A stretch of 34,893 bases of DNA. Origin: Nitrososphaerota archaeon. GTDB taxonomy: Archaea; Thermoproteota; EX4484-205; JAAOZO01. Location: assembly GCA_011605715.1 (NCBI GenBank), contig JAAOZO010000171.1:1-34893 (forward strand), read 5' to 3'. The notes under the pieces were generated by a model. That model made no database searches, was not told where the DNA came from, and saw only the letters and a list, made by a program, of their open reading frames with translations. The position numbers and the translations under genes were made by a program. This document shows, one piece after another, positions 1,288 to 25,960 of the stretch. Position 1 is the first letter of the stretch. Every line of letters begins with the position of its first letter.

Positions 1288-1351
1288 TTTCTCAATATCT
1301 TTTAAAGGTTTGTCCTTAAGACAATTCTATGAAAATGCAAAAGTGAGTTCT

Positions 1352-2512: not shown

Positions 2513-2530
2513 TTTGTCTAACCTGTGCTC

Positions 2531-3127: not shown

Positions 3128-3129
3128 TT

Positions 3130-3375: not shown

Positions 3376-3414
3376 CTTTCTGGTTTAATTCTTGTATTTT
3401 ATCTTTATAAATCT

Positions 3415-6222: not shown

Positions 6223-6277
6223 GCTTTTAAATTCCATACAAAGCTTTAATAAAAGTTAGGTAGGGATCGATAGCACT

Positions 6278-6814: not shown

Positions 6815-7109
6815 TTCTCCCAAAAATTAAAATTACGCGATAGTGGCAAGCCAGCTTAGGCTTAAGACTCGTTTTTCCTATTGAGTACTACTTAAGCTAG
6901 CGGTAACAAAGACAACGCTCTCTATTGTACTCGAGTATCTTTTACTTTTTAAATAATAACTCGAGTTTTTCATATGGCCCCCAGTTTTCATTTAGAAGTT
7001 AGAAGTATAGTTAAGTGATTCTTAGGTTGTCAGTTTCTAGTAACGTAAATAAAAGTCAAAAAATTATGAGAAAGTAAAGTTAAATGGCCGAAATCTTGAG
7101 CAAAAGTTC

Positions 7110-7931
7110 TTAGCTTAAGTATCCCGTTATAACTATACCTTTTCCTCTCTCGATACTAAACGTATAATACGTTGGATTTGTTGCAGTCCATCTCATCTTC
7201 CTTACGTAGAGTGTTCTCTTTACTTGGTTTCCAACTTTTGCTAGACCTAAAACTATTATTCCTGAGGCTAAGAACTCTTCAACTCCAAACCTACTAATCG
7301 AATTTTCTCCTGTAGGTACTTCTGAAGTTATTAAGTTAGTGGTCTTAATTTCATCTTCAATCGAGAATATCAAGCTCCTTATGTATTCTCTAGTCCAGGT
7401 TACTTCAGTTGTGCTCATAGTAACTAACGGTGCAACTGGATCTATAACCAATCTCTTTGCATTTATTGATTTCTGAATTTTTGAAAGTTCACTAACAATA
7501 TTTTTGACTATAACGTCCATCTCCTTACCCCACATTTTTGCAGCAAAATACTGCCTGACAGGAACTATCATTAACTTTCTTTCAGCAACTAGTTGTTGCA
7601 AGTCCCACCCAAATCTTCGTGTATCAGCAATCAATGCTTCAGGTCTTTCATCGATCGTTACATAAATTCCAGGTTCAGAGTTTTTGGCTCCATGAATTAA
7701 GAACTGCAAAGAAAATATTGTCTTTCCAGTTCCCGTTTCTCCTGCTACTAAATATGTTTTTCCTTTTTCGAAACCACCCTCAGTAATTTTGTCCAATTCT
7801 GGAATGCCTGTTGACACTCTTCTACTAACTGTTGTACTCCTTAATGGTGCTCCGCAATTTGGACAAAACTTGTAGTAAGGCCGAACTACCGCTCCGCATA
7901 CTTCGCATCTAAGAAACTCATCACTGCTCAA
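7110..7931 (-). CDS. KaiC/RadA-like RecA-superfamily ATPase with an N-terminal zinc ribbon
   Basis: 273 aa with a TTG start; no ATG preserves the N-terminus. Zinc ribbon CEVCGAVV...FCPNCGAPL, then GIPELDKITEGGFEKGKTYLVAGETGTGKT (Walker A) and KRLVIDPV (Walker B-like). Confidence 0.8.
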   Translation of the reverse strand: MSSDEFLRCEVCGAVVRPYYKFCPNCGAPLRSTTVSRRVSTGIPELDKITEGGFEKGKTYLVAGETGTGKTIFSLQFLIHGAKNSEPGIYVTIDERPEALIADTRRFGWDLQQLVAERKLMIVPVRQYFAAKMWGKEMDVIVKNIVSELSKIQKSINAKRLVIDPVAPLVTMSTTEVTWTREYIRSLIFSIEDEIKTTNLITSEVPTGENSISRFGVEEFLASGIIVLGLAKVGNQVKRTLYVRKMRWTATNPTYYTFSIERGKGIVITGYLS

Positions 7932-8168
7932 GTCTTTCTAGAAAACTAGAATGAGTACATATTTATATACTTGTCTCTATCTTATTTTTGTATTATATTT
8001 TTTACTATAATGTTTTATTTTACTAAATAGTACTCTCTTTGTCCTACTTAACGAAAATTTTAAAATTTTTAATAAAATAGGAGGAGCTACTAAATTTTTA
8101 GCGTCTCTGTAAAATAGCGCCAAAGGTGAGTAGTTAGGAGTTTCTTGATTGAGCGAAGTTTTTAAAAA

Positions 8169-8486
8169 TCAATTTGAAAGAGGAATTTTTTTATTTTGGT
8201 TACAATTCAAGCATTTTATCGTTATGTACTTCTTTTTCTTTCCTCTAATTCTTATTCTTGCAGTCTCTCCAGGTATGATGACTTTTTTGCAATTTTTGCA
8301 ATAAAAATATCTCTTGAAAACAGAGAAATTCCTCAAATTGTATTTTTTCCAAATCTTTAGACATAATTCTAAAACTTTTTTTCTATCCTCATACTTCACT
8401 TCACTGTTATCTATAACAAAGTTAACTAATTTTTCTACTCTTTTCTTAGCAATTTCCTGAAGTTCCTTCTTTTTTTCCTTCTTCAT
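8169..8486 (-). CDS. rnp4: RNase P protein component 4 (Rpp21/Rpr2 family)
   Basis: C-terminal zinc ribbon CKNCKKVIIPGETARIRIRGKKKKYITIKCLNCN is typical of Rpp21. The ORF opens at TTG 8522, but ATG 8486 (MKKEKKKELQEIAKKR...) avoids abutting the tRNA. Confidence 0.8.
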   Translation of the reverse strand: MKKEKKKELQEIAKKRVEKLVNFVIDNSEVKYEDRKKVLELCLKIWKKYNLRNFSVFKRYFYCKNCKKVIIPGETARIRIRGKKKKYITIKCLNCNQNKKIPLSN

Positions 8487-8529
8487 GGTTAATTTCTTTG
8501 TAAGACTGATTTCAGCAAACAAAAATAGG

Positions 8530-8651
8530 TGCGGCGAGTGCGGCTTCCGCTGACCAAGTGGTCATGTGCGGGATTTGAACCCGCGATTGCCAGCTTTCTC
8601 CGTTGCTTCCCATGGAAGGCTGGAGTCCTAACCAGACTAGACCAACGCCGC
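8530..8651 (-). tRNA. tRNA-Gly (anticodon UCC) with two introns: canonical 37/38 (17 nt, 8596-8612) and non-canonical at the T-stem/acceptor junction (about 30 nt, 8537-8566)
   Basis: Hand fold on the minus strand: acceptor GCGGCGT/ACGCCGC, D stem GTCT/GGAC with an AGTCTGGTTA loop, anticodon stem CCAGC/GCTGG, loop CTTCCA..A, T arm GCGGG-TTCAAAT-CCCGC. Intron 1 pairs with the anticodon (CTTCC/GGAAG). The 122-nt gene reduces to a 75-nt mature tRNA. Confidence 0.85.
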
Positions 8652-8792
8652 ACCTCACGTAGAGTTATGGCTAAATCTCTTTATATTTTTTTCTTTATTT
8701 ACGTTTTTGTGATTTTTTTTCAACCTAGGGTTGTATATGAGCTTATCCTGTCTTTTTGAATGGATTTTCTTTTCTACTTCTTTGTATCAAGT

Positions 8793-9419
8793 TTACTCCC
8801 TCATTCCGACACATACTACGTTTTGTGAGATAAAAATATCATAAAAGGTGAAATTTTCTTTTATCATCTCTTCTAATTCTTTTAATGTGTAACTGAAATA
8901 GGGCCTTTTCAAGATTTTTTTATCTGATGACCTCCAAGCTATGTAGAATAAGTTTTCTTTTCTTTCAAGAATCTTACTTTCTTTTACAACTCTTATGTTC
9001 CAAAAGGTAAAAATTGTTATTCCCGACTTTTTTAAGACTCTCCTTACTTCTCCTAACGCTGTTTTTACATCGTCTTTCGGTAAGTGGTGAAAAATTGCTA
9101 TTGCTACTAGAAGATCAAATATTTCATTTTTAAAGGGCAAAAAAGTAGCATCAGCTACCACTGAATCTGCTTTCCACTGCATTGTTTTTATTTCATATTT
9201 GGCTTCTCTGGTCATGCCAAAAGAAATATCCAAAGCAACATAAAATTTTACGTTTTCTACTAGGGTTGCAGAGTTAGTTCCTGGGCCGCATCCTTCATCA
9301 AGGGCTAATCCATATCTTTTCCATTTTGAAATTCGCTTAACATGATCGTTCTCCTTTCTCACCCTTTTGTATTCTTTTGAAATCTTGTTAAATACTTCAA
9401 TAACTTCTCTCTTTATCAT
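8793..9419 (-). CDS. Class I SAM-dependent methyltransferase (Trm9-like pattern)
   Basis: 208 aa. Motif I LDEGCGPGTNS, then VAIAIFHHL...ALGEVRRVLKKSGITIFTFW, resembling Trm9/ALKBH8-type tRNA methyltransferases. Confidence 0.7.
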   Translation of the reverse strand: MIKREVIEVFNKISKEYKRVRKENDHVKRISKWKRYGLALDEGCGPGTNSATLVENVKFYVALDISFGMTREAKYEIKTMQWKADSVVADATFLPFKNEIFDLLVAIAIFHHLPKDDVKTALGEVRRVLKKSGITIFTFWNIRVVKESKILERKENLFYIAWRSSDKKILKRPYFSYTLKELEEMIKENFTFYDIFISQNVVCVGMRE

Positions 9420-9488
9420 AAGAATGACTCACATTTTCAGAGAAGAAGATTTAATAAGAACCCCCTATTTAATCTTAACACGTAAGTT

Positions 9489-10529
9489 ATGGCTCCCAAA
9501 AAGTCCGAATTACCTCAAGATTCTGAAGACGAAGAAAAAGAAAATGAGACCGAGCAAGAGACGGAACATTCAGAGTCTTACTCTGAGATTGAAGACATTC
9601 CAGGAATTGGACCCGCGACTCTCGCTAAATTAAAAGAAATAGGCTATTCTACTCCTGAATCTCTAGCAACAGCGTCTATAATAGAGCTCGTTAAGGCTGG
9701 CATTTCAGAAAAAGTTGCTTCGAAGATAATTTCTGAGGCTAGAGGGAAAGTAGAAACAAGCTTTGTAACAGCTCTAGACCTTCTGGAGAAAAGAAAAAGC
9801 ATACGAAGAATAACAACTGGTAGTAAAGCACTAGACGAGCTTCTTGGAGGCGGAATTGAAACAATGAGCATAACAGAATTCTTTGGAGAATTTGGAACAG
9901 GAAAATCTCAAATTTGTCACCAACTAAGCGTTAACGTTCAGCTTCCATACGAAAAGGGCGGGTTAGCTGGTGGTGCTCTCTATATAGATACTGAGAATAC
10001 TTTCAGGCCTGAAAGGATAATGACGATGGCAGCAAATGTTGGTCTAGATCCACAAGAAGCATTGAAGAACATAATCGTAGCTGAAGCCTATAATTCCGAC
10101 CATCAGATGCTAATTCTAGAACGATCTGATGAAATAATAAAAGAAAAAAATATAAAGCTGGTAATAATTGATTCCCTAACTGCTCATTTTAGAAGTGAGT
10201 ATTTAGGCAGAGATACTCTGGCATTAAGACAACAAAAATTAAACAATCACTTACATAGATTAGAGCGTCTTGCGGTTGCCTTTAACTTAGCCACAGTCGT
10301 AACGAACCAAGTTATGGCAAAGCCTGACGAATTCTTTGGGCTTGGGACATATCCTATAGGTGGTCATGTTCTTGGTCATAGGAGCCAAACAAGGGTTTTC
10401 TTAAGAAAAGCTGCAGGTGGAAAAGGAAACAGAGTTGCTAGATTAGTAGTTGCAGTGGACAGGCCTGAAGGCGAAGCTGTGTTCAAGATAGATGAAAAGG
10501 GAATATCTGATGTTGAACCTTCTGAGTAA
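9489..10529 (+). CDS. radA: DNA repair and recombination protein RadA, with an acidic N-terminal extension
   Basis: 346 aa. HhH region [18 protein letters not shown] and Walker [23 protein letters not shown], with [15 protein letters not shown] and TNQVMAKPD blocks. Confidence 0.95.
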
Positions 10530-10533
10530 TCTT

Positions 10534-11829
10534 TCAAGGTATAAGTCTGTTTTTATCTCTTGGATAGAGTGTAGTTTCTCTTATGTTGTTTTCTCCAGTA
10601 ATAATCATCATTAACCTATTGAATCCAATAGCCCAACCAGCATGCGGTGGCATGCCATAACTAAAGAACTTTAAATGTTCAGAAAAACTACTTAAATTGA
10701 GCCCCATTTTCGTTATTCTATTTTCTAACTTTTCTCTGTTTTCTTCTCGAGTCCCCCCAGAACAAATTTCAAGCTCGCTAAACATTAGGTCAAATGATTC
10801 TGTAGTTCCATCGTCTTTCACTTTTATGTAAAATGGCTTTGTATTTTCTGGCCAATCTGTTACAAAAAAGAATTTATCTTTTAAATCTTTAATTAGTTTT
10901 ATGTGCTCTGAAGAAATATCCTCACCATAATTTATTTTCCCTCCTTCTTTTTTTACCATGTTCACAACTTCTTTGTAGCTATAACTCTCTATTTCTTTGT
11001 CTTTGTATTCTAAGAATTTTTCATTTAGAACTTCCTTGTATTCTCCATCGAGCTTGTCAAGTTCCTTAGAAATCGTTCTAATCAAATTGGCAAGTATTTC
11101 CATAACATCATTATAGTCTGCAAAAGCAACTTCAATATCAAGAGAAACAAACTCATTTAAATGTCTGGTCGTATCAAATGGTTCAGCTCTAAAGAACGTA
11201 CCTATTTCAAAAACTCTTTCCAAGCCCATAGTAAGTTGTTCTTTGTAGAGCTGAGGGCTCTGAGCAAGAAACGCTTTTTTGTCGAAGTAATTTAGCTCAA
11301 ATAAGTTTGCTCCACCTTCCGTAGCAGTTGATATTATTCTTGGAGTAACAACTTCTACAAAACCTTTTTCGTAAAAGAATTCTCTTGTAATCTTTAAAAC
11401 TTCTGAGAAGAGCTTAAATATTTTTGCAGTTCTTGGTCTCATTAAGTCTATTGGTCTGTTATCGAGCCTTACATCTAAACTAGCGTTTATTTTTCCTCTA
11501 ATTTCTAGCGGTAGTGGGTGTTTTGATTTATTTAGTACTTCTATTTCTTTTGCGACAAGCTCAAAGCCTTTTTTTGCAACTTTGCTTTTTCGTATAGTTC
11601 CCTTTACTTTTACTACATCATTTTGGTTTATTTTCTCTACTAATCTTCCAATTTCTTCTGGAGATTCTTCAGTTTTCCAAATAACTTGTACAGAATCAGT
11701 ACAGTCCTTAATCTTTAAAAACTTTATCTTTCCTAGGTCTCTTGTGTCCTCGACCCATCCTGCAATCGTGGTTTCTTTACCTTCTGGTAGATTGGAAAGC
11801 TGATTTATGTAAAAGTCCTTATGCCTCAT
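10534..11829 (-). CDS. aspS: Aspartyl-tRNA synthetase, archaeal type (class IIb)
   Basis: 431 aa. N-terminal OB anticodon-binding domain, FRAEPFDTTRHLNEF (motif 2), GGTRE, and C-terminal GWAIGFNRLMMIITG..NIRETTLYPRDKNRLIP. Confidence 0.9.
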   Translation of the reverse strand: MRHKDFYINQLSNLPEGKETTIAGWVEDTRDLGKIKFLKIKDCTDSVQVIWKTEESPEEIGRLVEKINQNDVVKVKGTIRKSKVAKKGFELVAKEIEVLNKSKHPLPLEIRGKINASLDVRLDNRPIDLMRPRTAKIFKLFSEVLKITREFFYEKGFVEVVTPRIISTATEGGANLFELNYFDKKAFLAQSPQLYKEQLTMGLERVFEIGTFFRAEPFDTTRHLNEFVSLDIEVAFADYNDVMEILANLIRTISKELDKLDGEYKEVLNEKFLEYKDKEIESYSYKEVVNMVKKEGGKINYGEDISSEHIKLIKDLKDKFFFVTDWPENTKPFYIKVKDDGTTESFDLMFSELEICSGGTREENREKLENRITKMGLNLSSFSEHLKFFSYGMPPHAGWAIGFNRLMMIITGENNIRETTLYPRDKNRLIP

Positions 11830-12344
11830 TCTCCCGCCTTAACCTCTTCTAAAGATATTTCAATTTTCTCATTTAATATCTTAGATAAAACTTGACTAAT
11901 TTCTTTTTCATTAAACTTAAGTTTCCCCCTTATCCTAATTTCTTTTGCTTTACTTCCATCAGGAAGCCATAACTCTCTAATGTACAATACCTTAGCTGAG
12001 CTTCCAGCTATTTTTTCCATCAAAGTTCTTAAGTTCTCTTTTCTGTCAGTGACCACAACATCTTTCTTTGTTGCTTCTCTTACACGAGAAAGTAATAGGC
12101 TTAAAGCATCATACTTGGATTCAAGAATGTTTGCTTCATTAAAAATTAGAACGATGAGCTTGCTACTTTCTGCGCTTCCAATGTATTCAAGGTTCTCAAA
12201 CTCTTTCTTCTTACCTAATAACTCTAAAATTAACCTGCTTATCGTCACATCTGTAAAAGAAAACCTAGTATTGAGTTTTTCTTTACATTCTTGACAAAAA
12301 ATTTCCGTACTCAAGCAAATTTCATGAAATGGTGTTTTTACCAT
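11826..12344 (-). CDS. Conserved-looking protein with an N-terminal Cys cluster (possible zinc ribbon); function unknown
   Basis: 172 aa with an ATG start and an ATGA overlap with aspS, suggesting translational coupling. HEICLSTEIFCQECKEKL near the N-terminus. No GxxG KH motif was seen. Confidence 0.65.
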   Translation of the reverse strand: MVKTPFHEICLSTEIFCQECKEKLNTRFSFTDVTISRLILELLGKKKEFENLEYIGSAESSKLIVLIFNEANILESKYDALSLLLSRVREATKKDVVVTDRKENLRTLMEKIAGSSAKVLYIRELWLPDGSKAKEIRIRGKLKFNEKEISQVLSKILNEKIEISLEEVKAGE

Positions 12345-12412
12345 GTTCTATACTCTTCTCCTTTCTCCTTAAACGTTTTTAAAGGGGTAAATAAATCCTA
12401 AGTTGAGAGAAA

Positions 12413-12586
12413 ATGCCTCTGGCCGATCCTAGCTTAATACAACTCGCACAAAAAAGACGTCTCTACTTTAAAATATGTCGAAAATGTGGTGCAAAGAATA
12501 GCATTACTGCAGTCAAATGTAGGAAATGTCACAGCTACAACTTAAGACTTAAGAAGAGAATGTTAAAAGCAAAGAAAAGTAAGTAG
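12413..12586 (+). CDS. rpl40e: 50S ribosomal protein L40e
   Basis: 57-aa ORF missing from the supplied track: MPLADPSLIQLAQKRRLYFKICRKCGAKNSITAVKCRKCHSYNLRLKKRMLKAKKSK. The C-x2-C...C-x2-C ribbon and the NLRLKK tail are characteristic of archaeal L40e. Confidence 0.9.
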   Translation: MPLADPSLIQLAQKRRLYFKICRKCGAKNSITAVKCRKCHSYNLRLKKRMLKAKKSK

Positions 12587-12698
12587 AGCCGTTCTGCTCT
12601 GAATTAATAAAGCAGGAGGCTAAAATATCTGGGTTTTATTCAAGAAATAAGCGTAAACTTTAAATAATTTTACTTTTATAGAATTTTCTGCCTTAAAT

Positions 12699-12749
12699 CG
12701 GGCTAAGTCCCGAAGGATAGCTACAGGCGAAGTGTAGCTTCCTAGGAAG
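12699..12749 (+). other. G+C-enriched run of hairpins immediately upstream of tRNA-Val (structured leader or small ncRNA candidate)
   Basis: CGGG-ctaagt-CCCG (12699-12712); AGCTACA-ggcgaag-TGTAGCT (12719-12739); palindrome CTTCCTAGGAAG (12738-12749). It ends 13 nt before the tRNA 5' end. Confidence 0.3.
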
Positions 12750-12762
12750 TAACGCGCTCACT

Positions 12763-12839
12763 GGGCCGGTGGTCTAGTCAGGTATGATGCTGCTCTCACA
12801 CAGCAGAGATCGCCAGTTCAAATCTGGCCCGGCCCACCA
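12763..12839 (+). tRNA. tRNA-Val (anticodon CAC), intron-less, CCA encoded
   Basis: Acceptor GGGCCGG/CCGGCCC, anticodon stem CTGCT/AGCAG with loop CTCACAC (CAC at 12797-12799), T arm GCCAG-TTCAAAT-CTGGC, discriminator A followed by CCA. Confidence 0.9.
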
Positions 12840-13203
12840 CTCTTAATTACTAGTGCTATCTTAGTAGGTATTGCTATCTGGCTCCCTGAAGTTAGACTCT
12901 AGCACTTCTATTTCCTTCGCACTGCATTTTCATAATGTCTTTTCATCTTTTGTTCTTATTCCTGCTTTCATAACTTATGGTTAAAAACTAAACTACTTTG
13001 GAATAGAGTTGCTGAAACTTTACTCTGAGTAGAACTAAAAATCTAAAAAATTAGTTGAGTAAAAAAGAGAATAGCTTAAAAACTTAGTAAAGCAATTTTT
13101 AGAATTTAAAGCTCTCTCAACACTTAAAAACTTGTCACACGATTCCCAAACTTCCGTAACGTTTAAAGTACCTTTATCTTTAAGATGTGAACAATGAAAC
13201 ACA

Positions 13204-18109: not shown

Positions 18110-18922
18110 ATGGAGAAATTAGAATGTCTAGAGAATGACAGCAGCAATACTTTCTATACCGAAGAGAAAGAATTAGATAATTCTGTTTTTTCTTTCAATG
18201 ACCTCTCTTCTCATCACCTTCTGTCCCAGTACGACGTAGATGAGAAAATACGCCAATACACCCGTTTATTACTTGAAAAATTAAACTTACCTTTATCTAT
18301 GGACCTTGCTATATTTAAAACGTATTTAGAAATAAAGAAGAGCTTGCCTAAGAATAATGTAAACTCAGTAGCCTTACTGGCCTCACTGGTCGTCTTATAT
18401 TCAAAGTTTTACAACTACCCAAAAAACATAAGTGAGGTGATGGAAATAGTTAAAGATTTTGACCCAAAAATTAAAAAAGGACGTATCCTCAAATATATGT
18501 ATCTTATAAAATCTATCAATAAATCGTTTAACAATTATGTATGTCCAGTCTCTTTTATTGATATGATAATGAACAGACTTGAAGATAGAGGACTGATTTT
18601 TGTTAACCCTATGTCAAAGAAATTTGATTACAAAAGATCATTAATCTTAATCTCAAGCTACCTATTAAGCAAGCTAAAAGATAAAAATATAAGTAGTAAT
18701 CCGAGAGGCATTGCTGCTTGTTCAATTTATACTTCTAACATATTGATTGCAAAATATAAGATTTTTAAATGTAAACGCCTAACTCAAAAACATTTAGCTA
18801 TTGCTTCTAATTTAGCTGAATACACAATAAGGGAGAACTACGAAAAACATTTTTCTATGTTTGTGAAGAATCCTCCAGAAGATTTACTATTACATCTTTC
18901 TCTCCTTCTGTCTCAGAACTAA
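18110..18922 (+). CDS. Divergent TFB (TFIIB) paralog: two cyclin-like repeats, no N-terminal zinc ribbon or B-reader
   Basis: 270 aa. The second repeat PRGIAACSIYTSNILIA....LTQKHLAIASNLAEYTIRENYEKH matches the TFB core signature (P.GiAAAaiY.A....TQ.e.a....VtE.TIRnRYkE). The first repeat has SVALLASLVVLYSKFYNYPKNISEVMEIV. There is no CxxC...CxxC. Confidence 0.75.
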   Translation: MEKLECLENDSSNTFYTEEKELDNSVFSFNDLSSHHLLSQYDVDEKIRQYTRLLLEKLNLPLSMDLAIFKTYLEIKKSLPKNNVNSVALLASLVVLYSKFYNYPKNISEVMEIVKDFDPKIKKGRILKYMYLIKSINKSFNNYVCPVSFIDMIMNRLEDRGLIFVNPMSKKFDYKRSLILISSYLLSKLKDKNISSNPRGIAACSIYTSNILIAKYKIFKCKRLTQKHLAIASNLAEYTIRENYEKHFSMFVKNPPEDLLLHLSLLLSQN

Positions 18923-19319
18923 TGTAGAAGTATTGCTCTACCACTGTGATATTTATTTTATACTTTACCTGCATCATATAAGTTTCGTTACTCACCTTTA
19001 TGCTATTTATGCTAAATACATAGGTCACTCGAGTATCGTTCTTTGAAAACTTGTTTGCTACCTTATTAAAGATATCACCTACTATAGCCTGTAACTCAGA
19101 AGATTTTATCGTCTTGTTTTCAATCGAACCTATTTCTTCTTTTATCTCCCTGTCTGCACTTTGTTCATTATTTGAAACTTCATTCGTTTTTTCATTGAAT
19201 TTCTTTATGATATCAATACTTTTAAAAATGTTAGTAGCTTCTTTTACTACAAGTAGCACGATTAAAGCGTACAAAAAAGTAAATACAGTTAATGCAGGTA
19301 CAATGCCTAAAGGCTTCAT
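18855..19319 (-). CDS. N-terminally anchored (pilin-like or signal-anchor) protein, last gene of the peptidase operon
   Basis: 154 aa. MKPLG-IVPALTVFTFLYALIVLLVV hydrophobic N-terminus, then a polar, beta-rich region. The 3' end overlaps the convergent TFB-like gene by 68 nt. Confidence 0.6.
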   Translation of the reverse strand: MKPLGIVPALTVFTFLYALIVLLVVKEATNIFKSIDIIKKFNEKTNEVSNNEQSADREIKEEIGSIENKTIKSSELQAIVGDIFNKVANKFSKNDTRVTYVFSINSIKVSNETYMMQVKYKINITVVEQYFYISSETEGEKDVIVNLLEDSSQT

Positions 19320-19331
19320 TTTGCTAAGTCT

Positions 19332-19427
19332 TCAAAGTAAGATATATCCTCTTACGATGTGTTCCAAGATGAATAAAGTCAGCCACATTATCAAAGTTGC
19401 CAAACTCACATCTATCTCTTCATACAT
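19332..19427 (-). CDS. 31-aa hydrophobic sORF, a truncated paralog of the N-terminus of the 113-aa protein
   Basis: Not in the supplied track. MYEEIDVSLATLIMWLTLFILEHIVRGYILL resembles MEEIEFIGSILAWFLLCTTIGVLEMKLV (19580-19921 product). It packs tightly between neighbours. Confidence 0.4.
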   Translation of the reverse strand: MYEEIDVSLATLIMWLTLFILEHIVRGYILL

Positions 19428-19443
19428 TTTCTCACCTACTTGT

Positions 19444-19596
19444 TCATATACCTACAACCCTCTTTATAAGCTCCCCTAAAATTCTGTTTACCTCATAGTT
19501 AACCATCATGAGTCCAACCAAGTAAAATGAAAGTATTAGAACTGAAAATCCAATTTCAAGAATTCCTAGCTTACCCTTTTTAAAACTTCCTATCAA
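19444..19596 (-). CDS. 50-aa Flp-like pilin candidate (TTG start)
   Basis: Not in the supplied track. With TTG 19596: MIGSFKKGKLGILEIGFSVLILSFYLVGLMMVNYEVNRILGELIKRVVGI. It has a basic N-terminus, an L-E-I-G-F motif and a hydrophobic helix. It overlaps the upstream gene's 3' end by 17 nt. The only in-frame ATG (19509) would remove the hydrophobic segment. Confidence 0.5.
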   Translation of the reverse strand: MIGSFKKGKLGILEIGFSVLILSFYLVGLMMVNYEVNRILGELIKRVVGI

Positions 19597-19921
19597 GGAT
19601 AACTCCCTGTTCACTTATAGACACATTTACACTTCTATCAAAGAGAACAGTAACATTTTCGTAAAAAGGAGCACTTATTTGAATAGCTGACTCATTTATT
19701 TTTTCTATTTTAATAACTTCTGACCCAATTTTTGGCAGATTTATCCTGAATTCTACTTTTTTGTTTGCTCTTGTGATATAATTGATTTTTTCAAATAAAA
19801 TCTTTATCGTCTCTACTTCCTTTTTTTCATATGTAGAAACTAATTTCATTTCAAGAACTCCAATGGTCGTGCACAACAAAAACCATGCTAAGATTGAGCC
19901 AATAAACTCAATCTCTTCCAT
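19580..19921 (-). CDS. Pilin-like protein: hydrophobic N-terminal helix plus a beta-rich domain
   Basis: 113 aa. MEEIEFIGSILAWFLLCTTIGVL, then alternating beta-type sequence (VEFRINLPKIGSEVIKIEKI...VTVLFDRSVNVSI). Confidence 0.6.
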   Translation of the reverse strand: MEEIEFIGSILAWFLLCTTIGVLEMKLVSTYEKKEVETIKILFEKINYITRANKKVEFRINLPKIGSEVIKIEKINESAIQISAPFYENVTVLFDRSVNVSISEQGVILDRKF

Positions 19922-19927
19922 TTTTCA

Positions 19928-20086
19928 CTACCTTCCTAAAATTAATTTGTTTAAACTTACTTTAGCAAAAAGTTCTCCAAGTATTTTAACGATTTGAGAA
20001 AAATTTTTTGCAAAGAAATAAAGTATTAATGCTGAAATTAATCCTTCAATCATCATCGTCATCATCTTCTCCAATATCCTGCTCAT
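19928..20086 (-). CDS. 52-aa Flp-like pilin candidate
   Basis: Not in the supplied track. MSRILEKMMTMMIEGLISALILYFFAKNFSQIVKILGELFAKVSLNKLILGR. It shares I-E-G-L plus a hydrophobic helix plus ILGEL with the 19444-19596 product. It lies 5 nt after the peptidase gene and 6 nt before the next gene. Confidence 0.55.
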   Translation of the reverse strand: MSRILEKMMTMMIEGLISALILYFFAKNFSQIVKILGELFAKVSLNKLILGR

Positions 20087-20091
20087 TTTTC

Positions 20092-20682
20092 CTACAAAAA
20101 CATAGTATGTGAAAGGCTAGTTATAAGCACCAATGTTCCAAATAATGGAATAAACGGCACGTCAGACTTTTTTGATTTAACTTTTGGGAAAATTAGTGTA
20201 AAACTCCAAGTAAACGGAAGGGCAAATGTAACAATTTTAACAAGCCTTTTACTACTAGTTTTATTCTGCAGTTTTCTTAGGAAATGGATTCTAAGCAAGA
20301 GCGTGTACGTGTTCACATAAATTGGTTCTATTAGGCTAGTATCAAATTGTAAGTTCGTGGGAAATAAGCCCAACATTAGTCTTACCTTAAAAATACCTAC
20401 GCTTACTGGTTGTATAATTGCTAATGAAAACATGAAATCTGCAAATCCAGAATATCCAAGTATAAATTGAATACCTGAAATCAATGCAACCTTTAAAATA
20501 GAAAGTAAGTAGTCGAAAGTATTCTCCAATAAAATGCCTTTTATGAGTACGAGTATCAGACTTAATATAAAAAATATCACTAAAAAAATTGCAGAAACTT
20601 CTCTGTCTCTTATGTCTTCGTAGCTCATTATTATCCAAAGCAGTACCCAAATGAAAAGTAGTCCTTTTTCCAGCAACAACAT
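20092..20682 (-). CDS. Peptidase A24-family prepilin/preflagellin peptidase-like membrane protein (PibD/FlaK/TadV type)
   Basis: 196 aa, polytopic. MSYEDIRDREVS fits the first catalytic-Asp motif (y.D...r.vp). LGYSGFADFMFSL is a plausible second G-x-x-D motif. Confidence 0.7.
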   Translation of the reverse strand: MLLLEKGLLFIWVLLWIIMSYEDIRDREVSAIFLVIFFILSLILVLIKGILLENTFDYLLSILKVALISGIQFILGYSGFADFMFSLAIIQPVSVGIFKVRLMLGLFPTNLQFDTSLIEPIYVNTYTLLLRIHFLRKLQNKTSSKRLVKIVTFALPFTWSFTLIFPKVKSKKSDVPFIPLFGTLVLITSLSHTMFL

Positions 20683-20750
20683 TTTTATCCTTTTTACAAG
20701 TTTTATTTGTCCTTATAAAGGCCCACAGAGAGCTTTAAATTAGAATAAAA
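20683..20750. promoter_or_regulatory. Compact divergent promoter region between the two pilus-like operons
   Basis: 68-nt AT-rich spacer with TATA-like elements facing both ways (ccTTATAAAgg, cTTTAAATTag) at a suitable distance from both start codons. Confidence 0.4.
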
Positions 20751-20906
20751 ATGAAGCATGAGGATGCTATAATAGATGCTATAATAGACGAGATTTCAAA
20801 TTTAAAGAATGAGTTATCCATAGTAAAAAGAAGGCTTGATCTGTTACAAGGTTACATAATGAAATCTAAAGAGACTTCTCTAAATTCAGAAGAAGCTAAA
20901 AAATGA
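20751..20906 (+). CDS. 51-aa coiled-coil protein translationally coupled to the secretion ATPase
   Basis: Not in the supplied track. MKHEDAIIDAIIDEISNLKNELSIVKRRLDLLQGYIMKSKETSLNSEEAKK. ATGA overlap with the next gene. Confidence 0.5.
   Translation: MKHEDAIIDAIIDEISNLKNELSIVKRRLDLLQGYIMKSKETSLNSEEAKK
20763..20788 (+). repeat. Perfect 12-nt tandem duplication (gatgctataata x2, plus ga) inside the small coiled-coil ORF
   Basis: Read directly from the sequence. It encodes DAII-DAII. Confidence 0.9.
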
Positions 20907-22618
20907 GAATCAAAGAAATAAGAAGGTTTAAGAACCATTTATTAATTACTGTGCATGATAACTTTAATGAAAGTCTCGTAGATGAAATTCTTAACTATGT
21001 GATCTTTTATATGCGTTTTTTCAGGAATATAAGTTCTGTTGATGTAAAGTTTAATAATTACGAAGAAACTATAGTTGACAAAGCAATTTTATCTAAATGT
21101 TTAAATAAGGCGCGTCAAATTTCAAAGCTTGTTAAGACAATAGCGTTAAGATATAGAAGCAAACTCGAAGGTATTGACCTAAGTTATTTGTCAGTCTATC
21201 CGAATTTCGGTGAGCTTTATAACTTAAATAAGAATCCTAAGCAAGAAGTTCTTCTTGCTAACTCAAATTTTAGTATGGATTATGCTTGCAATGAAACTAT
21301 TGAGATTCCGAGCAGATTATACCACTTAGACGCTGTTTTAAAAGGTGGTGTGTACCACATCAAGTATAAAGATATTTTTGTAAAGAATATTTTGCTTGAT
21401 ACTTCGTATTTTCTTAGATGGGTTGTTGATGATCGTCTTCTTGAACCAAATAAGTTTAGTGATTTCATCGAATATAGGTATAAGTTTGCCATAAGGTATC
21501 TAAACAAAACCATCCAAAATCTTTCTACTCAATTAATTAGAAGTATAGCGATTCATTCTGTTTTTGTTTCAATGGGTTTACCTTCCCTTTTTCCCCTCTT
21601 TTTAGATAAAAGTATCAACGAAATCTACCTTGATGACTTAGGAAAGACGGTATATGTTGAGCATGCTGATTATGGAAGGTTGCCTACTAATATCAAACCA
21701 AGGGATAAGGAAGTTAGAGCTCTTCTTTCAGCCCTAAGAAGGAACAGTGGCCAAGAGTTAAGTCTTTCAAATCCTTCTATTAAGGGTGATCTCTCGTTTT
21801 ATAATTCTATTTTAAGAGTTTCTTTCGATTCTTTTCCTCTAGTTAACAACTTCTCCTTTGACATAAGAAAGTTGAGCAAAGAGTCAAAAAACTTATCAAG
21901 TCTTGTTCAAAGTGGTACCCTAGATAAAGTAACGGCATCTTTCCTTGTGAATTTGTTGAGAATTCGTGCCAACATTTCTATAGTTGGAGAGCCTGGAAGT
22001 GGCAAAACGACGTTACTTGCTTCAATTTTGAATTTTGTCCCCAAAAACTGGAGAGTCATAATTTTAGAGGATGTTCCGGAGATTTCTTACTCTTTCTCTG
22101 GGTCAAATTTTTGTTTAAAGCTATTTACTGATCCTTTTGAGTCTAAGACTAAAGTAAGAAAAAAGTCAGAAGAAATAGTTAAGCTACTTCACAGGAATCC
22201 AACTTATGTAGTTCTTGGTGAGTTACAGTACGAAGACCACTTCAAGTCTCTTTTTTATGCTTTATCTTCAGGGTTAAGAGTTATTCATACTTCTCACGCG
22301 CCAAGTATCGCTGGATTCATTGATAGAGTGGTAAATGTTTACAAAATTTCTAGTTCTTTAGTCTCATACCTTGATGTTGTTTTAGAAATGAAGAAAATAG
22401 AAAATGACGGTAAGGTTATACGAAGATTAAATTCTATCGGTTTTGTGAATATTTCAAGTACAGATCCTTATGAACTAAAAGTTGTAAACTTAAATAACAA
22501 TAATTCAGATACTCTAGAAGGTATTTACCAGAATTGGATCAAAATGATATTAGTAAAGAGGAACGAAACTAACTACATTAATAATTTTTGTTTTTTGCAA
22601 AATAGTGAGCTATCTTGA
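20903..22618 (+). CDS. Type II/IV secretion-family ATPase (FlaI/TadA/PilB/VirB11-like) with a long divergent N-terminal region
   Basis: 571 aa. Walker A VGEPGSGKTTLL, Asp box VIILEDVPEI, Walker B PTYVVLGELQYED, His box RVIHTSHAPS. The first roughly 350 aa have no motif I recognise. Confidence 0.8.
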   Translation: MRIKEIRRFKNHLLITVHDNFNESLVDEILNYVIFYMRFFRNISSVDVKFNNYEETIVDKAILSKCLNKARQISKLVKTIALRYRSKLEGIDLSYLSVYPNFGELYNLNKNPKQEVLLANSNFSMDYACNETIEIPSRLYHLDAVLKGGVYHIKYKDIFVKNILLDTSYFLRWVVDDRLLEPNKFSDFIEYRYKFAIRYLNKTIQNLSTQLIRSIAIHSVFVSMGLPSLFPLFLDKSINEIYLDDLGKTVYVEHADYGRLPTNIKPRDKEVRALLSALRRNSGQELSLSNPSIKGDLSFYNSILRVSFDSFPLVNNFSFDIRKLSKESKNLSSLVQSGTLDKVTASFLVNLLRIRANISIVGEPGSGKTTLLASILNFVPKNWRVIILEDVPEISYSFSGSNFCLKLFTDPFESKTKVRKKSEEIVKLLHRNPTYVVLGELQYEDHFKSLFYALSSGLRVIHTSHAPSIAGFIDRVVNVYKISSSLVSYLDVVLEMKKIENDGKVIRRLNSIGFVNISSTDPYELKVVNLNNNNSDTLEGIYQNWIKMILVKRNETNYINNFCFLQNSELS

Positions 22619-23154
22619 AAATAAATAGGCTTATCAACTTAGTACAAGGCTATCTCAAACCTATCTTTGATAAACTGAGTAACAGAAGACTAGGTCTTTC
22701 AACTTTGCAACATACGTTGTATGTATCCTATAGAATAGTTGGCGAAAATGAAATTCATGCAGCTAGACATGTACTAAAGCTTAATGATGAAAGTGCTACA
22801 TATAAAAAATTTATTTATGCTATAGGCTCTGGGCTCGATGCTGATAAATACTTAACATTAGAGCTAAACAAAACAGAGCAATACCTAAAGTTTAAGTCGA
22901 GTATTTATCAAAGGATTTCTTTTATTGAGAGCTATAATAGAAATATGTACCTGAGAAGTGTAGATAGGCTTAAAGTACTTTTAACAATATTTACTTTTTT
23001 ATCATTTATCATACCGTTTGTATTTATTTTTCTCTCTTTCTTTCTCTTCAAGAATTATGTTGACTTTTTATCTTACTTTATCCTACTTTATCCAATTTTT
23101 CTTTCATTTTTTCTTAGGTTAGCAAGAGTTGAAGATAAATATGTCATCAAATAA
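22615..23154 (+). CDS. T2SSF/TadB-like platform protein, first half of a split FlaJ/TadC
   Basis: 179 aa. TTG start in a TTGA overlap with the ATPase stop. A roughly 120-aa helical soluble region followed by two strongly hydrophobic segments. Confidence 0.55.
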   Translation: MKINRLINLVQGYLKPIFDKLSNRRLGLSTLQHTLYVSYRIVGENEIHAARHVLKLNDESATYKKFIYAIGSGLDADKYLTLELNKTEQYLKFKSSIYQRISFIESYNRNMYLRSVDRLKVLLTIFTFLSFIIPFVFIFLSFFLFKNYVDFLSYFILLYPIFLSFFLRLARVEDKYVIK

Positions 23155-23929
23155 GATCTTCGCAACAGTTATTCTTCTGCTATCTTCTGTTGTTGCTCAA
23201 ACTTTACTCAGTGGAAAGAACTTTAACATAGTTATCATCTCTTTCTTTTCGCTCCTTATTTCTTTGTTGTTAAGAAACGAAAGTCCAAAAGTTAACGTTA
23301 AAGATAGAGAAAAACTCCTTGATTACTTTTCAAGCACAATATCTAGAAGTAAAGAAGGACTTTTCCAAGAGGCATCATTTTTTAAAGATTCAAAAAATCA
23401 AAGAATTAAATATCATAAAAAGCTTGTCTACTTGGTTTCGAATGGCTTTCCAATAGAAGATGCTCTTCTGAAGAGTATTTCAGAAAGTAAAGACCCAATT
23501 CTCGTATTCGTATCAGAGCAGTTGCGCTATGGAAGAATAAGCTCTAACGAAGTTGATAAAGTGATTGGGATGTGGCTTGATAACTTAGGCTACATTCATG
23601 AAACTAATAGGCTCTTGTCTGAGTTTGAAAATAGAGTAACACTCTTAAATTACATTCTGTTTGTCTCCTTTGGCTTTATATCAGCATCGCTTAGATCCTT
23701 TGGATCTCTCATAAAAAATTCTGTAAACTATTTATTCTTTAGCAACTTGAGTTATAATATCGATGCAATAACGCTATCTCTTCTCATGTTTTCTATTTCA
23801 ATATTTACTGTTTCTTCATCTTACTTTAATCTAAGTAATAAAACTATTAAGTTTGCTACTTCTTGTTTTTTGTTTTTAGTTTCCTACCTACTTTTTGGAA
23901 TAATCTTCTTTTATGCAGGCAATCTTTGA
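23141..23929 (+). CDS. T2SSF/TadC-like platform protein, second half
   Basis: The ORF opens at TTG 23129; ATG 23141 (MSSNKIF...) overlaps the upstream stop. N-terminal TM hairpin, a cytoplasmic helical domain (LVSNGFPIEDALLKSISESKDPILVFVSEQLRYG, GspF-like) and C-terminal TM segments. Confidence 0.6.
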   Translation: MSSNKIFATVILLLSSVVAQTLLSGKNFNIVIISFFSLLISLLLRNESPKVNVKDREKLLDYFSSTISRSKEGLFQEASFFKDSKNQRIKYHKKLVYLVSNGFPIEDALLKSISESKDPILVFVSEQLRYGRISSNEVDKVIGMWLDNLGYIHETNRLLSEFENRVTLLNYILFVSFGFISASLRSFGSLIKNSVNYLFFSNLSYNIDAITLSLLMFSISIFTVSSSYFNLSNKTIKFATSCFLFLVSYLLFGIIFFYAGNL

Positions 23930-23986: not shown

Positions 23987-24172
23987 ATGAAAAAGCTTAG
24001 AGCTTCTCAACTAATAGAAGAAGGTCTCCTAATAGTCCTCGCCTTAGTGATGATAGGTGCTGTCTTCGGAGTATACAAATCCATAATAGACGGGATCTCA
24101 AACTTCTTTAAAAACATAGTAGATAGCATAGGTAAGGTTGCGTACGAGCTGTTTGGTTGGGCGTATCCTTAA
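23987..24172 (+). CDS. Flp-like small pilin (class III-type signal peptide candidate)
   Basis: The ORF opens at TTG 23969; ATG 23987 gives MKKLRASQLIEEGLLIVLALVMIGAVFGVYKS.... The basic leader, then S-Q-L-I-E-E-G-L-L-I, resembles the bacterial Flp G/xTxIEYGLI processing motif. Confidence 0.65.
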   Translation: MKKLRASQLIEEGLLIVLALVMIGAVFGVYKSIIDGISNFFKNIVDSIGKVAYELFGWAYP

Positions 24173-24175
24173 AAA

Positions 24176-25960
24176 TTGAAGATAAAGAATTTCTCTTTAC
24201 CAGAAGATTTTACAGTTGTTTTATCTGCTGCTATTCTTACGCTCGTCTTTGTGTTCAGCAAGTTCCCTCTACTTTTTCAACAAGGGTTCGTCGCATCTTA
24301 TAGGTTTTTATTTTTGTTTATTGTTTTCATTTCTATTTTTTCAGTTTTCTTGATGTACCAATACTTGCATCTAAATAGGTCTAACAGCAATGTAACTTAT
24401 TCTTTGCTAGAAAATGATTTGGTTTTGTTAAAATCTGACTCAAGAAAATACTTCTTGCAGCTATTTAAGTTAGAGTGTCATGACTTAAGTAAACCTAGTC
24501 AATTTGGTCAATTTTTTGATTTTCTTTATAAGTCTGGTATTAGTATAAAGTTAGTTGCAAACATTTACAACCAATCAAATAACTATCGAAATTTCGAAAT
24601 ATTCATACTCGCTTATGAAGAAATTCAAGGTGACTTTAAACAAGATTACATTCCTATAGTTGAAGAGAAATTCAATTCTCTTCTTATCGCTTCTAAAGCT
24701 TACTCCAACGTTATTAGTTTGACTAAACTAGAAGGCTCTTCTCTCTTAAATAGCTTAGACCTATACTTCCTTAACAAAAAAGAAATAAACCATAATTCAG
24801 AAGAAGAACAAAAAAATTCAGGTGAAGTTTTAGCTTCATTGTTTTTACCTTCTCCAAGTAGTGATTTTGTTAATGGCATTTCTTTTATGTCTAAAGAAAA
24901 AGATAGTGAAAGCGGAGTAATTCTCGGAGAGCAAATATATAAAGGAGAACCTTGTGGTACATTTGTCTTGCCAGTTGATTCATTATTCAAGCATTCAGTT
25001 ATAGTTGGAATAACAGGATCTGGTAAGTCAACTACAAATAAGCAAATTTTAAAGGAACTCAGCAGGCTTGGATTTCACTTTTTACTGTTTGATTTTCATG
25101 ATGAGTATGACCAAGAGTTCTCAAACTCCACTTCGTCTTACATTTTTAGATTTTCAGGAGAAGCTTCTATTGACTTTTTATCACCGTTTGAAATGAAAGA
25201 TTTTTCAAATCATGTTTCTATAGTAACTGATGTCTTTAACAACGTATACTCCTTTTCACCATCTCAATTTTTTGTTTTTCGTGATGTTTTATCCTCAGAA
25301 TTAGCTTATTCAAAAATTAATAGGGTTTCACCAACAATGAGAGGCGTAGTAGATAGACTAGAGAATTATGAGCCAAAGTCGTTTTATGAGAATGAGACAA
25401 AATTTTCGTTATTGCGAAGATTAAAGCCCCTAAGTGAAGGCGAAGGTAGTAAAATATTCGCAATTTCTAATTTGATGAAAATTGACAGTATTCTTAACAA
25501 GAATGTAATTTTAAAAGTCTCTGATATAAAAGATTCTGACTTAAGAAAGCTTACAGTTTCTCTTATACTTGCTTTAGTGTATGAGTACAGGCTGACAAAC
25601 GGGCCAGACAAAATTGGACATTTTATTTCTTTAGAGGAAGCCCAAAACTTTGTCCCGTTTAGAAACAGAACAGAAGAAGCTTCAATATATGAAAAAATGT
25701 TTTTTGAAATGAGGAAGTATAGAGAATCTCTTATTTTAATTGCTCAATTCCCTTCTCAGATTTATCCTGACTTGCTTAAGTCTTGTGAAGTTAAGGTTGT
25801 CCATAGGCTTTTTTCAGCTGGGGATGCATCCTTAATTGAAGATATATTGGGAATAGATGAAAAAATACTTGAACAACTTAAATCTTTGCCGGTAGGTCGT
25901 GTTCTCGTTTTTATTCCTTCTAGTAGAAGTCCTATTACCGTTCAGGTACGTAGGGATTAG
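24176..25960 (+). CDS. Membrane-anchored FtsK/HerA-superfamily ATPase (DUF87/HerA-, VirB4/CedB-like)
   Basis: 594 aa. TTG start 3 nt after the pilin stop. Two N-terminal TM segments (VVLSAAILTLVFVF; FLFLFIVFISIFSVFLMY). Walker A HSVIVGITGSGKSTT, HerA-like LLFDFHDEY, Walker B-like HFISLEEAQNFVP, and a LILIAQFPSQI block. Confidence 0.75.
   Translation: MKIKNFSLPEDFTVVLSAAILTLVFVFSKFPLLFQQGFVASYRFLFLFIVFISIFSVFLMYQYLHLNRSNSNVTYSLLENDLVLLKSDSRKYFLQLFKLECHDLSKPSQFGQFFDFLYKSGISIKLVANIYNQSNNYRNFEIFILAYEEIQGDFKQDYIPIVEEKFNSLLIASKAYSNVISLTKLEGSSLLNSLDLYFLNKKEINHNSEEEQKNSGEVLASLFLPSPSSDFVNGISFMSKEKDSESGVILGEQIYKGEPCGTFVLPVDSLFKHSVIVGITGSGKSTTNKQILKELSRLGFHFLLFDFHDEYDQEFSNSTSSYIFRFSGEASIDFLSPFEMKDFSNHVSIVTDVFNNVYSFSPSQFFVFRDVLSSELAYSKINRVSPTMRGVVDRLENYEPKSFYENETKFSLLRRLKPLSEGEGSKIFAISNLMKIDSILNKNVILKVSDIKDSDLRKLTVSLILALVYEYRLTNGPDKIGHFISLEEAQNFVPFRNRTEEASIYEKMFFEMRKYRESLILIAQFPSQIYPDLLKSCEVKVVHRLFSAGDASLIEDILGIDEKILEQLKSLPVGRVLVFIPSSRSPITVQVRRD

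Follow-up and report, generated by a model that had tools for sequence, protein, structure and literature searches.

A conserved cassette of five small genes beside a Flp-like type IV filament operon in Brockarchaeota

Layout and conservation of the cassette

The window analysed here, a stretch of 34,893 nucleotides (nt; contig JAAOZO010000171.1), comes from an 85%-complete metagenome-assembled genome (MAG) of Brockarchaeota, a hot-spring archaeon. This report concerns five minus-strand open reading frames (ORFs), called s52, s113, s56, s31 and s154 and hereafter the cassette, which are tightly packed 3' of a gene for a 196-amino acid (aa) A24 peptidase-like membrane protein (20092-20682, minus strand) and adjacent to the operon of a Flp-like type IV filament. 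The peptidase-like gene is the first of the minus-strand operon. It is followed by s52 (19928-20086; 52 aa), a headless protein with the conserved N-terminus M-S-x-[IL]-[LIV]-E-K and no leader, and by s113 (19580-19921; 113 aa), which starts with M-E-E-I-E-F and is predicted to form a long N-terminal helix and a six-stranded beta domain. The third gene, s56 (19444-19614), is also headless and measures 56 aa if started at the GTG at 19614 or 50 aa if started at the TTG at 19596; a basic stretch (..SFKKGKLG) precedes ILEIG and a hydrophobic helix. In s31 (19332-19427; 31 aa), M-Y-E-E-I-D is followed by one hydrophobic helix, the remnant of a head-bearing protein of 105-132 aa, and the operon ends with the largest subunit, s154 (18855-19319; 154 aa), which is N-terminally anchored. 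From the peptidase-like gene to s154 the spacings are 5, 6, 16 and 12 nt, and s56 overlaps the 3' end of s113.

An initial annotation, made from the letters alone, had described these ORFs as paralogous mini-pilin-like genes behind a dedicated prepilin peptidase, and all five were found on the minus strand where it had placed them. Three of them had been missing from the accompanying ORF track, which is explained by a 60-aa cut-off (s52, s56 and s31 measure 52, 56 and 31 aa). Four of the five cassette ORFs, as well as the peptidase, already occur in public protein sets as unnamed or hypothetical proteins, and the exact 31-aa sequence of s31 was absent from all public protein collections searched.

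Using the nearly invariant pilin of the neighbouring operon as an anchor, we gathered 21 loci from GTDB species representatives; two of the four GTDB families of the order (f2 and f3 of f1-f4) were fetched separately. The cassette was found in all four families, f2 and f3 included. Its genes occurred in the same order, s52-s113-s56-s31 family-s154, in 20/20 Brockarchaeota loci with enough flanking sequence, always flanked by the ATPase operon on one side and, on the other, by a convergent TFB gene with an Sm-like gene after it. Two congeners of the window's archaeon (ATPase identity 87% and 76%) carry the five ORFs in identical order and with the same lengths. The cassette is also kept in relatives of 50-55% G+C, so that AT-richness is not the cause of the ORFs, and ribosome-binding motifs (GGTGA or GGAGG) precede most cassette genes across the loci.

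Substitution patterns were examined in pairs within the window's genus by the Nei-Gojobori method. The ratio of nonsynonymous to synonymous substitution rates (dN/dS) was 0.18-0.54 for s52, 0.16-0.22 for s113, 0.27-0.52 for s56 and 0.19-0.37 for s154, as compared with 0.24-0.32 for the peptidase and 0.13-0.16 for the ATPase. For s31 it was 0.19 in one pair; in the others synonymous sites were saturated (dN 0.30). Synonymous changes were significantly in excess in 13/15 pairwise tests, including all three for s31 (p 0.001-0.015).

These results bear on the possibility, raised as a refuting outcome by the initial annotation itself, that chance frames in AT-rich DNA account for the short ORFs, in part or entirely. 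The cassette region has a G+C content of 31%, three of the ORFs are shorter than 60 aa and s31 is annotated nowhere, all of which would fit such an origin. However, the presence, order and length of the genes are conserved throughout the order, even at 50-55% G+C, each gene shows a surplus of synonymous changes and the ribosome-binding motifs are conserved. A long antisense ORF on the plus strand (19051-19479; 142 aa), which spans s154, s31 and s56, does not keep its length in the two congeners (101 and 53-63 aa), and it was therefore taken as spurious and as no rival to the cassette. The ORFs being conserved and their substitutions coding-like, we regard a chance origin as ruled out for all practical purposes and the five ORFs as real genes under purifying selection.

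Five families with a common architecture

Members of the s52 family (46-69 aa; present in all loci) begin with M-[SAVG]-x-x-x-E-K and continue with two helices, the first hydrophobic and the C-terminal one amphipathic. K7 does not vary, and at least 90% of the sequences have S2 and E6; the N-termini read MSxLLEK in f1 and f4, MAEILEK in f2 and MVELSEK in f3. The string MMIEGL, which the initial annotation had taken for a family motif, is confined to the genus, and the ungapped alignment shows MSRILEK as the conserved N-terminus. A register that sets MMIEGL on the QLIEEGLL of the pilin was rejected, because the ungapped family alignment sets MSRILEK on MSSLLEK/MSNLLEK. A residue of the Ser, Ala, Val or Gly type at position 2 permits excision of the initiator methionine, and excision is therefore expected in s52. 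It would place E6-K7 at +5/+6 (x-x-x-x-E(+5)-K, with the actual N-terminus deduced from the sequence), which is the register of the predicted mature major pilin, S-Q-L-I-E(+5)-E-G. In a full-length hhalign comparison, pilin S7 (the predicted +1 residue) was paired with S2 of s52, albeit weakly (E = 0.021).

The s52 ortholog of family f3 is longer, at ~130-140 aa, and has a beta-rich C-terminal domain (7613-8044 in locus L057; about 9071-9469 in L056). It resembles a full pilin-like protein more than a mini-protein without a head, which suggests that the short s52 forms were derived by loss of the head, giving Flp-like mini-subunits. Against the mature size of a headless Flp (about 45-60 aa), the headless s52 measures 46-52 aa and s56 39-50 aa; s52 has the x-x-x-x-E-K start and lacks a Gly-containing leader. 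In database searches, 10/19 s52-family members weakly matched the Pfam family CBP_BcsF, a small single-pass cellulose-synthase subunit; with a best E-value of 0.0011 this was judged compositional and rejected as the identity of s52. A search against NCBIfam gave a faint match to TraA (E = 0.028).

In the s113 family (113-132 aa), M1, E2, E5 and W13 are invariant in an alignment of 19 sequences. The AlphaFold2 model of s113 (predicted local distance difference test, pLDDT, 82.7; predicted template modelling score 0.65) has a helix of 51 residues (2-52) followed by six strands, and its best Foldseek match was ribosomal protein L6 (E = 0.045), an unrelated fold and not significant. An exhaustive search of 1.84e9 proteins with the s113 profile recovered only 21 cluster representatives, nearly all of 100-131 aa; a word-indexed search gave 14 matches. 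All of these homologs are unnamed or 'hypothetical', so that no annotation could be borrowed from them. The remote homologs all align from residue 1, with N-termini that include MPSESLEN, LEQIEF, MMNEIEF and MTEILEE, and the absence of a leader is thus a trait of the family. In two loci (L036 and L042, upstream of 6235 and 6239, respectively), CTG takes the place of the TTG with which the s113 ortholog otherwise starts, and the codons upstream of it (LNEILEEH) are in frame and conserved; CTG may be a non-canonical start there. In locus L043 (5895-6274), the ortholog is broken into ORFs of 85 and 41 aa, by a frameshift or an assembly error in the MAG.

The s56 family is likewise present in all loci; its members measure 41-56 aa in most of them, and one f3 locus has a form of 73 aa. 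What looks like a class III leader is seen in f1 and f3, where a basic stretch closes with a conserved Gly and an acidic residue follows at +3/+4 (KLG/ILE, KLG/AFME, LRG/FVD, KAG/LSE). The orthologs of f2 (MLETLG) and f4 (MSDKLLDF) are leaderless, and Glu or Asp lies at +3 to +7 across the family. As for the start codon in the window, the GTG at 19614 is an ATG in locus L030 and is the start of the 56-aa form used by JGI, and the TTG at 19596 has GGAG 6 nt upstream and is the start of the 50-aa form used by NCBI. The leader-like stretch is present with either.

The fourth cassette gene encodes only 30-34 aa in the window and in loci L029 and L030, as compared with 105-160 aa in all other loci (19332-19427 in the window; 4928-5275 in L034; about 5360-5790 in L035-L049). 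Its orthology is based on operon position and on the identity of 7/15 N-terminal residues with a 115-aa protein of genome G004. In f4 the family starts with M-Q/E/D/H-F-L-E-G, so that the glutamate is residue 5 with the methionine retained; in f1 the acidic residue is E4 or D6. A perfect GGTGA Shine-Dalgarno sequence lies 4 nt before the s31 ATG, and the s31 stop codon is only 12 nt from the s154 start, which indicates that the head domain was deleted rather than frameshifted. Judged from these sequences, s31 is a truncation specific to the window's genus that is still under purifying selection. That selection persists on a protein of which only the helix is left suggests that this helix is the functional core of the family.

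The s154 family (146-206 aa or longer) is found in all loci and has a basic residue at position 2-3. The AlphaFold2 model of s154 (pLDDT 88.8) consists of a 59-residue helix (6-64), a short strand, a second helix (73-91) and three long strands. Its best Foldseek match was an unrelated fold and not significant (E = 0.0056, template modelling (TM) score 0.15); weak matches included NTF2-like proteins, LptE, SecB and the conjugation protein TcpC (3ub1; E = 0.03, TM score 0.24). Both the s113 and the s154 model have the pilin-like arrangement of a long helix plus a beta-sheet, and because neither has a significant structural match, it is from this predicted architecture that the pilin-like reading of the folds is drawn.

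All five proteins thus have an N-terminal hydrophobic helix, and in four of them a conserved acidic residue lies about five residues from the start. A class III leader, that is a short basic stretch with Gly or Ala at -1, was absent from s52, s113, s31 and s154 in all clades, also when the most upstream starts were taken. The families could not be connected by sequence. In Smith-Waterman comparisons of the window proteins against 2,000 composition-preserving shuffles no pair was significant (s52-s56, the best, p = 0.04 uncorrected; s52-pilin and s113-s31, p = 0.26 each). Among the six family alignments, the best hhalign E-values were 0.012 for s113 with the s31 family, over the N-terminal 33 residues only, and the 0.021 of the pilin with s52, neither of which is significant. 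Family hidden Markov models (HMMs) were run over the whole genome in six-frame translation (23,988 segments), and each matched only its own family.

For these reasons the label 'paralogous' was dropped: the initial annotation was right about the ORFs and their coordinates, but no pairwise or profile comparison bears out the two sub-families it had seen or their likeness to the plus-strand pilin. On present sequence evidence the cassette is better described as five distinct conserved orphan families with a common architecture. Nor did any sequence or fold search support placing them in a known pilin family (Flp, TadE, class III signal or N_methyl). The curated pilin models (N_methyl, Flp_Fap PF04964, TadE PF07811, Class_IIIsignal and those of NCBIfam) matched none of the window proteins at E <= 1, and among 19, 19 and 18 members of the s113, s52 and s154 families they gave no match at that threshold, only noise.

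The adjacent filament operon and the peptidase

The filament operon diverges from the minus-strand operon across an AT-rich intergenic region of 68 nt (20683-20750), as read from the sequence, in which TTTATAA (20713-20719, minus strand; ~34 nt upstream of the peptidase ATG) is a putative promoter of the minus-strand operon. All genes of the filament operon lie on the plus strand, beginning with that of a 51-aa coiled-coil protein (20751-20906) that is conserved in relatives (dN/dS 0.04-0.19). The next gene encodes a 571-aa T2SSE secretion ATPase with a FlaI/VirB11/TadA-like core (20903-22618; Pfam PF00437, 1.2e-16; NCBIfam FlaI, 1.7e-28; VirB11, 1.3e-19; TadA, 6.9e-19). Two overlapping membrane-protein genes (22615-23929; 179 and 266 aa), which keep their position downstream of the ATPase in all loci and match no Pfam or NCBIfam family, presumably encode a split platform. 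The cassette is always linked to this ATPase, the two membrane proteins and the Flp-like pilin.

That pilin, the candidate for the major subunit (23987-24172), measures 61-67 aa across 22 loci, with residues 13-35 nearly invariant. Its leader (..K-L-R-A in the window) always ends in [KR]-[AG] before SQLIEEG, which agrees with a class III leader (Gly or Ala at -1, Glu at +5). Neither Pfam nor the PDB gave a sequence match. The pilin gene is always followed by that of a membrane-anchored HerA/VirB4-type ATPase (594 aa; 24176-25960), regarded as CedD-like, which matches the DUF87/HerA central domain of Pfam (1.7e-13) and, weakly, TrwB/TraG.

The 196-aa protein of the window itself matched no Pfam or NCBIfam family (for PF01478, none at E <= 0.1). 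Its orthologs beside the same ATPase in four other genomes (G003, G006, G007 and G009) do match PF01478, with E-values of 1e-4 to 6e-4 and scores of 20-24 bits, below the gathering cut-off of 26.5, and the profile of the peptidase family recovers these orthologs at 1e-3 to 7e-10. When the family was compared by hhalign with the canonical A24 enzymes of the same genomes, both Asp motifs were aligned with the D and GGAD motifs of those enzymes (probability 87.5%, E = 3.6e-6). D23 (..SYEDIRDREVS..), D82 (..GYSGFAD..) and P176-x-I178-P179 are invariant in seven orthologs, and the orthologs of f2 and f3 carry the canonical GGGD/GIGD. A PDB profile search with the family gave no match to FlaK. The ortholog scores, the profile alignment and the invariant aspartates together point to a divergent member of the A24 peptidases that has both catalytic aspartates and is probably active, and on this point the kinship proposed by the initial annotation holds.

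A dependence of the cassette on this enzyme, which had also been proposed, is a different matter, since four of its families have no leader and since the peptidase can be absent where the cassette is retained. In f4 (genus g6 in our genome sample), a profile search found no 196-aa-type peptidase at the locus or in the rest of the genome; f4 nevertheless keeps all five cassette genes and a leader-bearing major pilin. A canonical A24 enzyme is encoded elsewhere in every genome (in the window's genome at C123:11374-11724, with GGADAK). That the locus peptidase goes together with the s56 leader fits f1, f3 and f4, and was rejected because it fails in f2, where the peptidase occurs with the leaderless MLETLG. 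The f4 genomes also have a second short A24 peptidase (217 aa, GPGD) near another type IV pilus locus (L062, 634-1287; L063, 335-991).

On the far side of the cassette, the TFB-like gene (270 aa; 18110-18922, plus strand) converges on s154, whose 3' end it overlaps by 68 nt. Orthologs in the other families are 300-345 aa long and have CxxC..CxxC zinc ribbons; the window protein has no zinc ribbon and no Pfam match at E < 0.01. The synteny of TFB and the Sm-like gene with the cassette was observed in every locus seen, even outside the order.

At least two further lineages of Thermoproteota carry related super-loci (G031 and G032/G039; L065 of G031, 1170-10831, and L064 of G032, 4522-13022). Their order is TGT, Sm-like, TFB, three to four minus-strand anchored proteins, coiled-coil, ATPase, platform, pilin, HerA/VirB4-type ATPase and an adenylate-kinase-like gene, and the junctions of their Flp-like pilins read RRG/SPLVEEG and RRRG/IQLVEEL. 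In G031 the platform is a single fused gene of 371 aa and the HerA-type ATPase is split.

The cassette as a set of filament subunits

We lean, with modest confidence, towards reading the cassette as a co-transcribed set of minor subunits of the adjacent Flp-like type IV filament, mostly leaderless and acting at its tip or in its priming. This agrees with the distinction between major and minor pilin-like subunits drawn by the initial annotation, which synteny, the N-terminal helices with Glu or Asp and the AlphaFold architectures make the best supported of the readings, and it parts from that annotation in leaving out paralogy, dependence on the peptidase and placement in a known family. The ancestral set would have comprised three head-bearing proteins (s113, the s31 family and s154) and two headless ones (s52 and s56). 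The N-terminal helices of the head-bearing proteins could bundle on the platform into a tip or priming complex, by analogy with TadE/TadF/TadG, with s52 and s56 as headless adaptors that bridge to the major pilin, and the filament would then grow by ATPase-driven addition of the 54-aa major pilin.

According to this model, translation of s52, s113, s31 and s154 would directly yield a mature-pilin-like N-terminus with Glu at about +5, the methionine being excised from s52 and retained in MExIEF and MQFLEG. Having no leader, these subunits would be independent of prepilin peptidase. Only the major pilin and, in the window's genus, probably s56 would still require the 196-aa A24 protein or the canonical enzyme encoded elsewhere in the genome. 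The unusual point is that most cassette subunits seem to need no processing enzyme. To our knowledge, priming and functionalisation are the work of minor pilins in every type IV filament studied, and no minor pilin is known to dispense with leader cleavage; our literature search for leaderless pilins found none.

Several observations weigh against it. Known minor pilins require a leader and processing by a peptidase (PMC12075869). The similarity of the cassette proteins to the major pilin is statistically insignificant, none of the five window ORFs matches Pfam or NCBIfam, PDB sequence-profile searches with the s52, s56 and pilin families returned nothing relevant, and Foldseek searches of the PDB with the s113 and s154 models had no pilin in the top 50. 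Depending on family and clade, the acidic residue lies anywhere from +3 to +7, s154 lacks one near its N-terminus, and in 2/21 s52 orthologs (L035 and L039) the ORF starts two to three residues further upstream.

Part of this evidence would also suit a different role, in which the five proteins are membrane parts of the machine that never enter the filament. They would serve as alignment, stator or scaffold proteins comparable to PilN/PilO/GspM or ArlF/ArlG, held by the N-terminal helix as an anchor and staying around the platform. All five are bitopic, with one N-terminal anchor and no cleavable leader, as is usual for accessory proteins but not for pilins; the searches matched no pilin family or fold; and s154, which lacks Glu5, combines a long helix with a subsequent alpha/beta domain. 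We nevertheless consider this role unlikely. Foldseek found no PilN, PilO, GspM, ArlF or ArlG either, although these are present in the PDB, and in four families a conserved Glu or Asp is buried at the very start of the membrane helix, a hallmark of the pilin type and not of scaffolds. In addition, the headless proteins of 43-52 aa have no domain with which to scaffold, and the f3 ortholog of s52 resembles a complete pilin.

The cassette could also belong to a DNA-transfer apparatus of the type IV secretion system or Ced kind, the headless proteins resembling VirB2, VirB3 or CedA1, s154 resembling VirB8 (an anchor plus an NTF2-like domain) and the two ATPases being VirB11- and VirB4/CedD-like. 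Consistent with such an apparatus, a HerA/VirB4-type ATPase always closes the plus-strand operon, the first ATPase scores on VirB11/TrbB models besides FlaI, Ced pilins are unprocessed (PMC9905601), and TraA and TcpC are among the weak matches of s52 and s154, respectively. These matches are, however, all at noise level. Moreover, s52, s56 and the major pilin each have one hydrophobic segment plus an amphipathic helix rather than the two-helix hairpin of VirB2, and PDB profile searches with the s52, s56 and pilin families returned no CedA1, TedC, TraA or VirB2. The class III leader and the Glu at +5 of the major pilin, together with the A24 peptidase at the locus, are defining features of type IV filaments. 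We therefore hold membership in a DNA-transfer apparatus to be quite improbable.

Known systems and the 4D clade

Read as a set of minor subunits, the cassette has a close analogy in the bacterial Tad/Kil systems. In these, minor pilins of the TadE/F/G type form a three-helix tip that primes polymerisation, and extra Flp-type minor pilins join the tip (PMC12075869). Like the window on this reading, Tad (type IVc) systems such as that of Myxococcus (KilL/M/N plus KilK/KilO; PMC12075869) have a small headless Flp-type major pilin, three head-bearing and two headless minor subunits, an ATPase, a two-part platform, a short A24 enzyme without a methyltransferase domain, and hydrophobic N-terminal helices with Glu near +5, as counted from the predicted N-termini of the cassette proteins. 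They differ in that the bacterial leaders have G/XXXXEY and are processed by TadV/KilA, whereas four of the five proteins here are leaderless. The window, for its part, is archaeal, has no match to TadE (PF07811) or Flp_Fap (PF04964) and no secretin or Rcp parts, and has an extra HerA/VirB4-type ATPase.

Similarly, the Epd pilus of Methanococcus maripaludis (EpdA-E, EppA; PMC3875500, PMC13705601) combines a headless major pilin with several minor ones, and has two platform genes and a dedicated A24 peptidase. Its pilins carry class III leaders that are cut by EppA, and no sequence relationship to the window was detected. The window further differs from Epd in the clade of its ATPase, in its leaderless subunits, in its linkage to TFB and in the CedD-like ATPase. 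By analogy, the parts list of the window (pilin, three head-bearing and two headless subunits, ATPase, split platform and short A24 peptidase) is that of a Tad/Epd-type filament. The cassette would be a concrete archaeal 3+2 counterpart of the bacterial tip of TadE/F/G and minor Flp proteins, a point of relevance to the proposal that Tad pili arose in archaea. Should the archaeal set prove to consist of leaderless Glu5-type subunits, it would represent a second route to assembly-competent subunits, and the leaderless design would explain why such proteins are missed by Pfam and by FlaFind, which searches for class III signals.

The ComG competence pseudopilus of monoderm bacteria (ComGA-GG, ComC) combines one major and four minor pilin-like proteins with an ATPase, a platform, a peptidase and a separate DNA-translocating ATPase. 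It shows no sequence relationship to the window, and the ComG proteins carry leaders. Here, a function in DNA uptake is suggested by the CedD-like neighbour. The Ced/Ted DNA-import pili (CedA1, TedC; PMC9905601) share with the window small archaeal pilins, of which CedA1 is unprocessed, and VirB4/HerA-type ATPases (CedB/CedD). Their pilins are VirB2-like two-helix lipid-binding hairpins, unlike the single helix of s52 and s56, and there is no profile match between them.

Among archaeal systems, the ATPase points to subclade 4D of Pyrobaculum/Thermoproteus, type-IV-pilus-like systems that have been described as devoid of pilins and of secreted proteins (Makarova et al. 2016, PMC4858521; Sivabalasarma & Albers 2026, PMC13705601). 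These systems (arCOG05558 ATPase clade) consist of an ATPase and one protein with 4-5 transmembrane segments, with a TFIIB of a single cyclin domain in the operon (PMC4858521). A locus in genome G035 fits this description (L067, G035:C1:1901000-1914000; 3805-7764), with an RpoG-like gene, a TFIIB of 175 aa (a zinc ribbon and one repeat), a 343-aa T2SSE ATPase with a Cys-rich N-terminus and a 180-aa membrane protein. The window ATPase and the 343-aa ATPase are reciprocal best matches (4.3e-26 and 4.6e-28, as compared with 2e-10 for the other type IV pilus ATPase), a lead, drawn from the best matches in two genomes, that the window ATPase may be kin to those of 4D. Both are linked to a TFIIB/TFB paralog; orthology between the TFB-like gene and the TFIIB of 4D was not detected. 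In contrast to 4D, the window has a pilin, five pilin-like genes, a peptidase, two membrane proteins and a second ATPase, and its TFB-like gene is convergent rather than part of the operon.

From these comparisons one may venture further, tentatively and in the expectation that it could well prove wrong, that the leaderless subunits are 'pre-matured': the start codon and the rules of methionine aminopeptidase would take the place of prepilin peptidase in producing the assembly-competent N-terminus, with its free amine at +1 and Glu at +5. The outcome would be a peptidase-independent priming complex in a Thermoproteota machine of ancient origin, in which a Flp-like filament is coupled to a DNA motor of the CedD/VirB4 type. 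The window would then hold a full-featured relative of the 'pilin-less' 4D systems. Given the CedD-like linkage and an ATPase nearest to the 4D clade, genes of the cassette type are the obvious candidates to seek, as unannotated small ORFs, in 4D systems. At the G035 locus, a 196-aa sub-threshold A24 peptidase (GSGYAD) is encoded 1.3 kb upstream.

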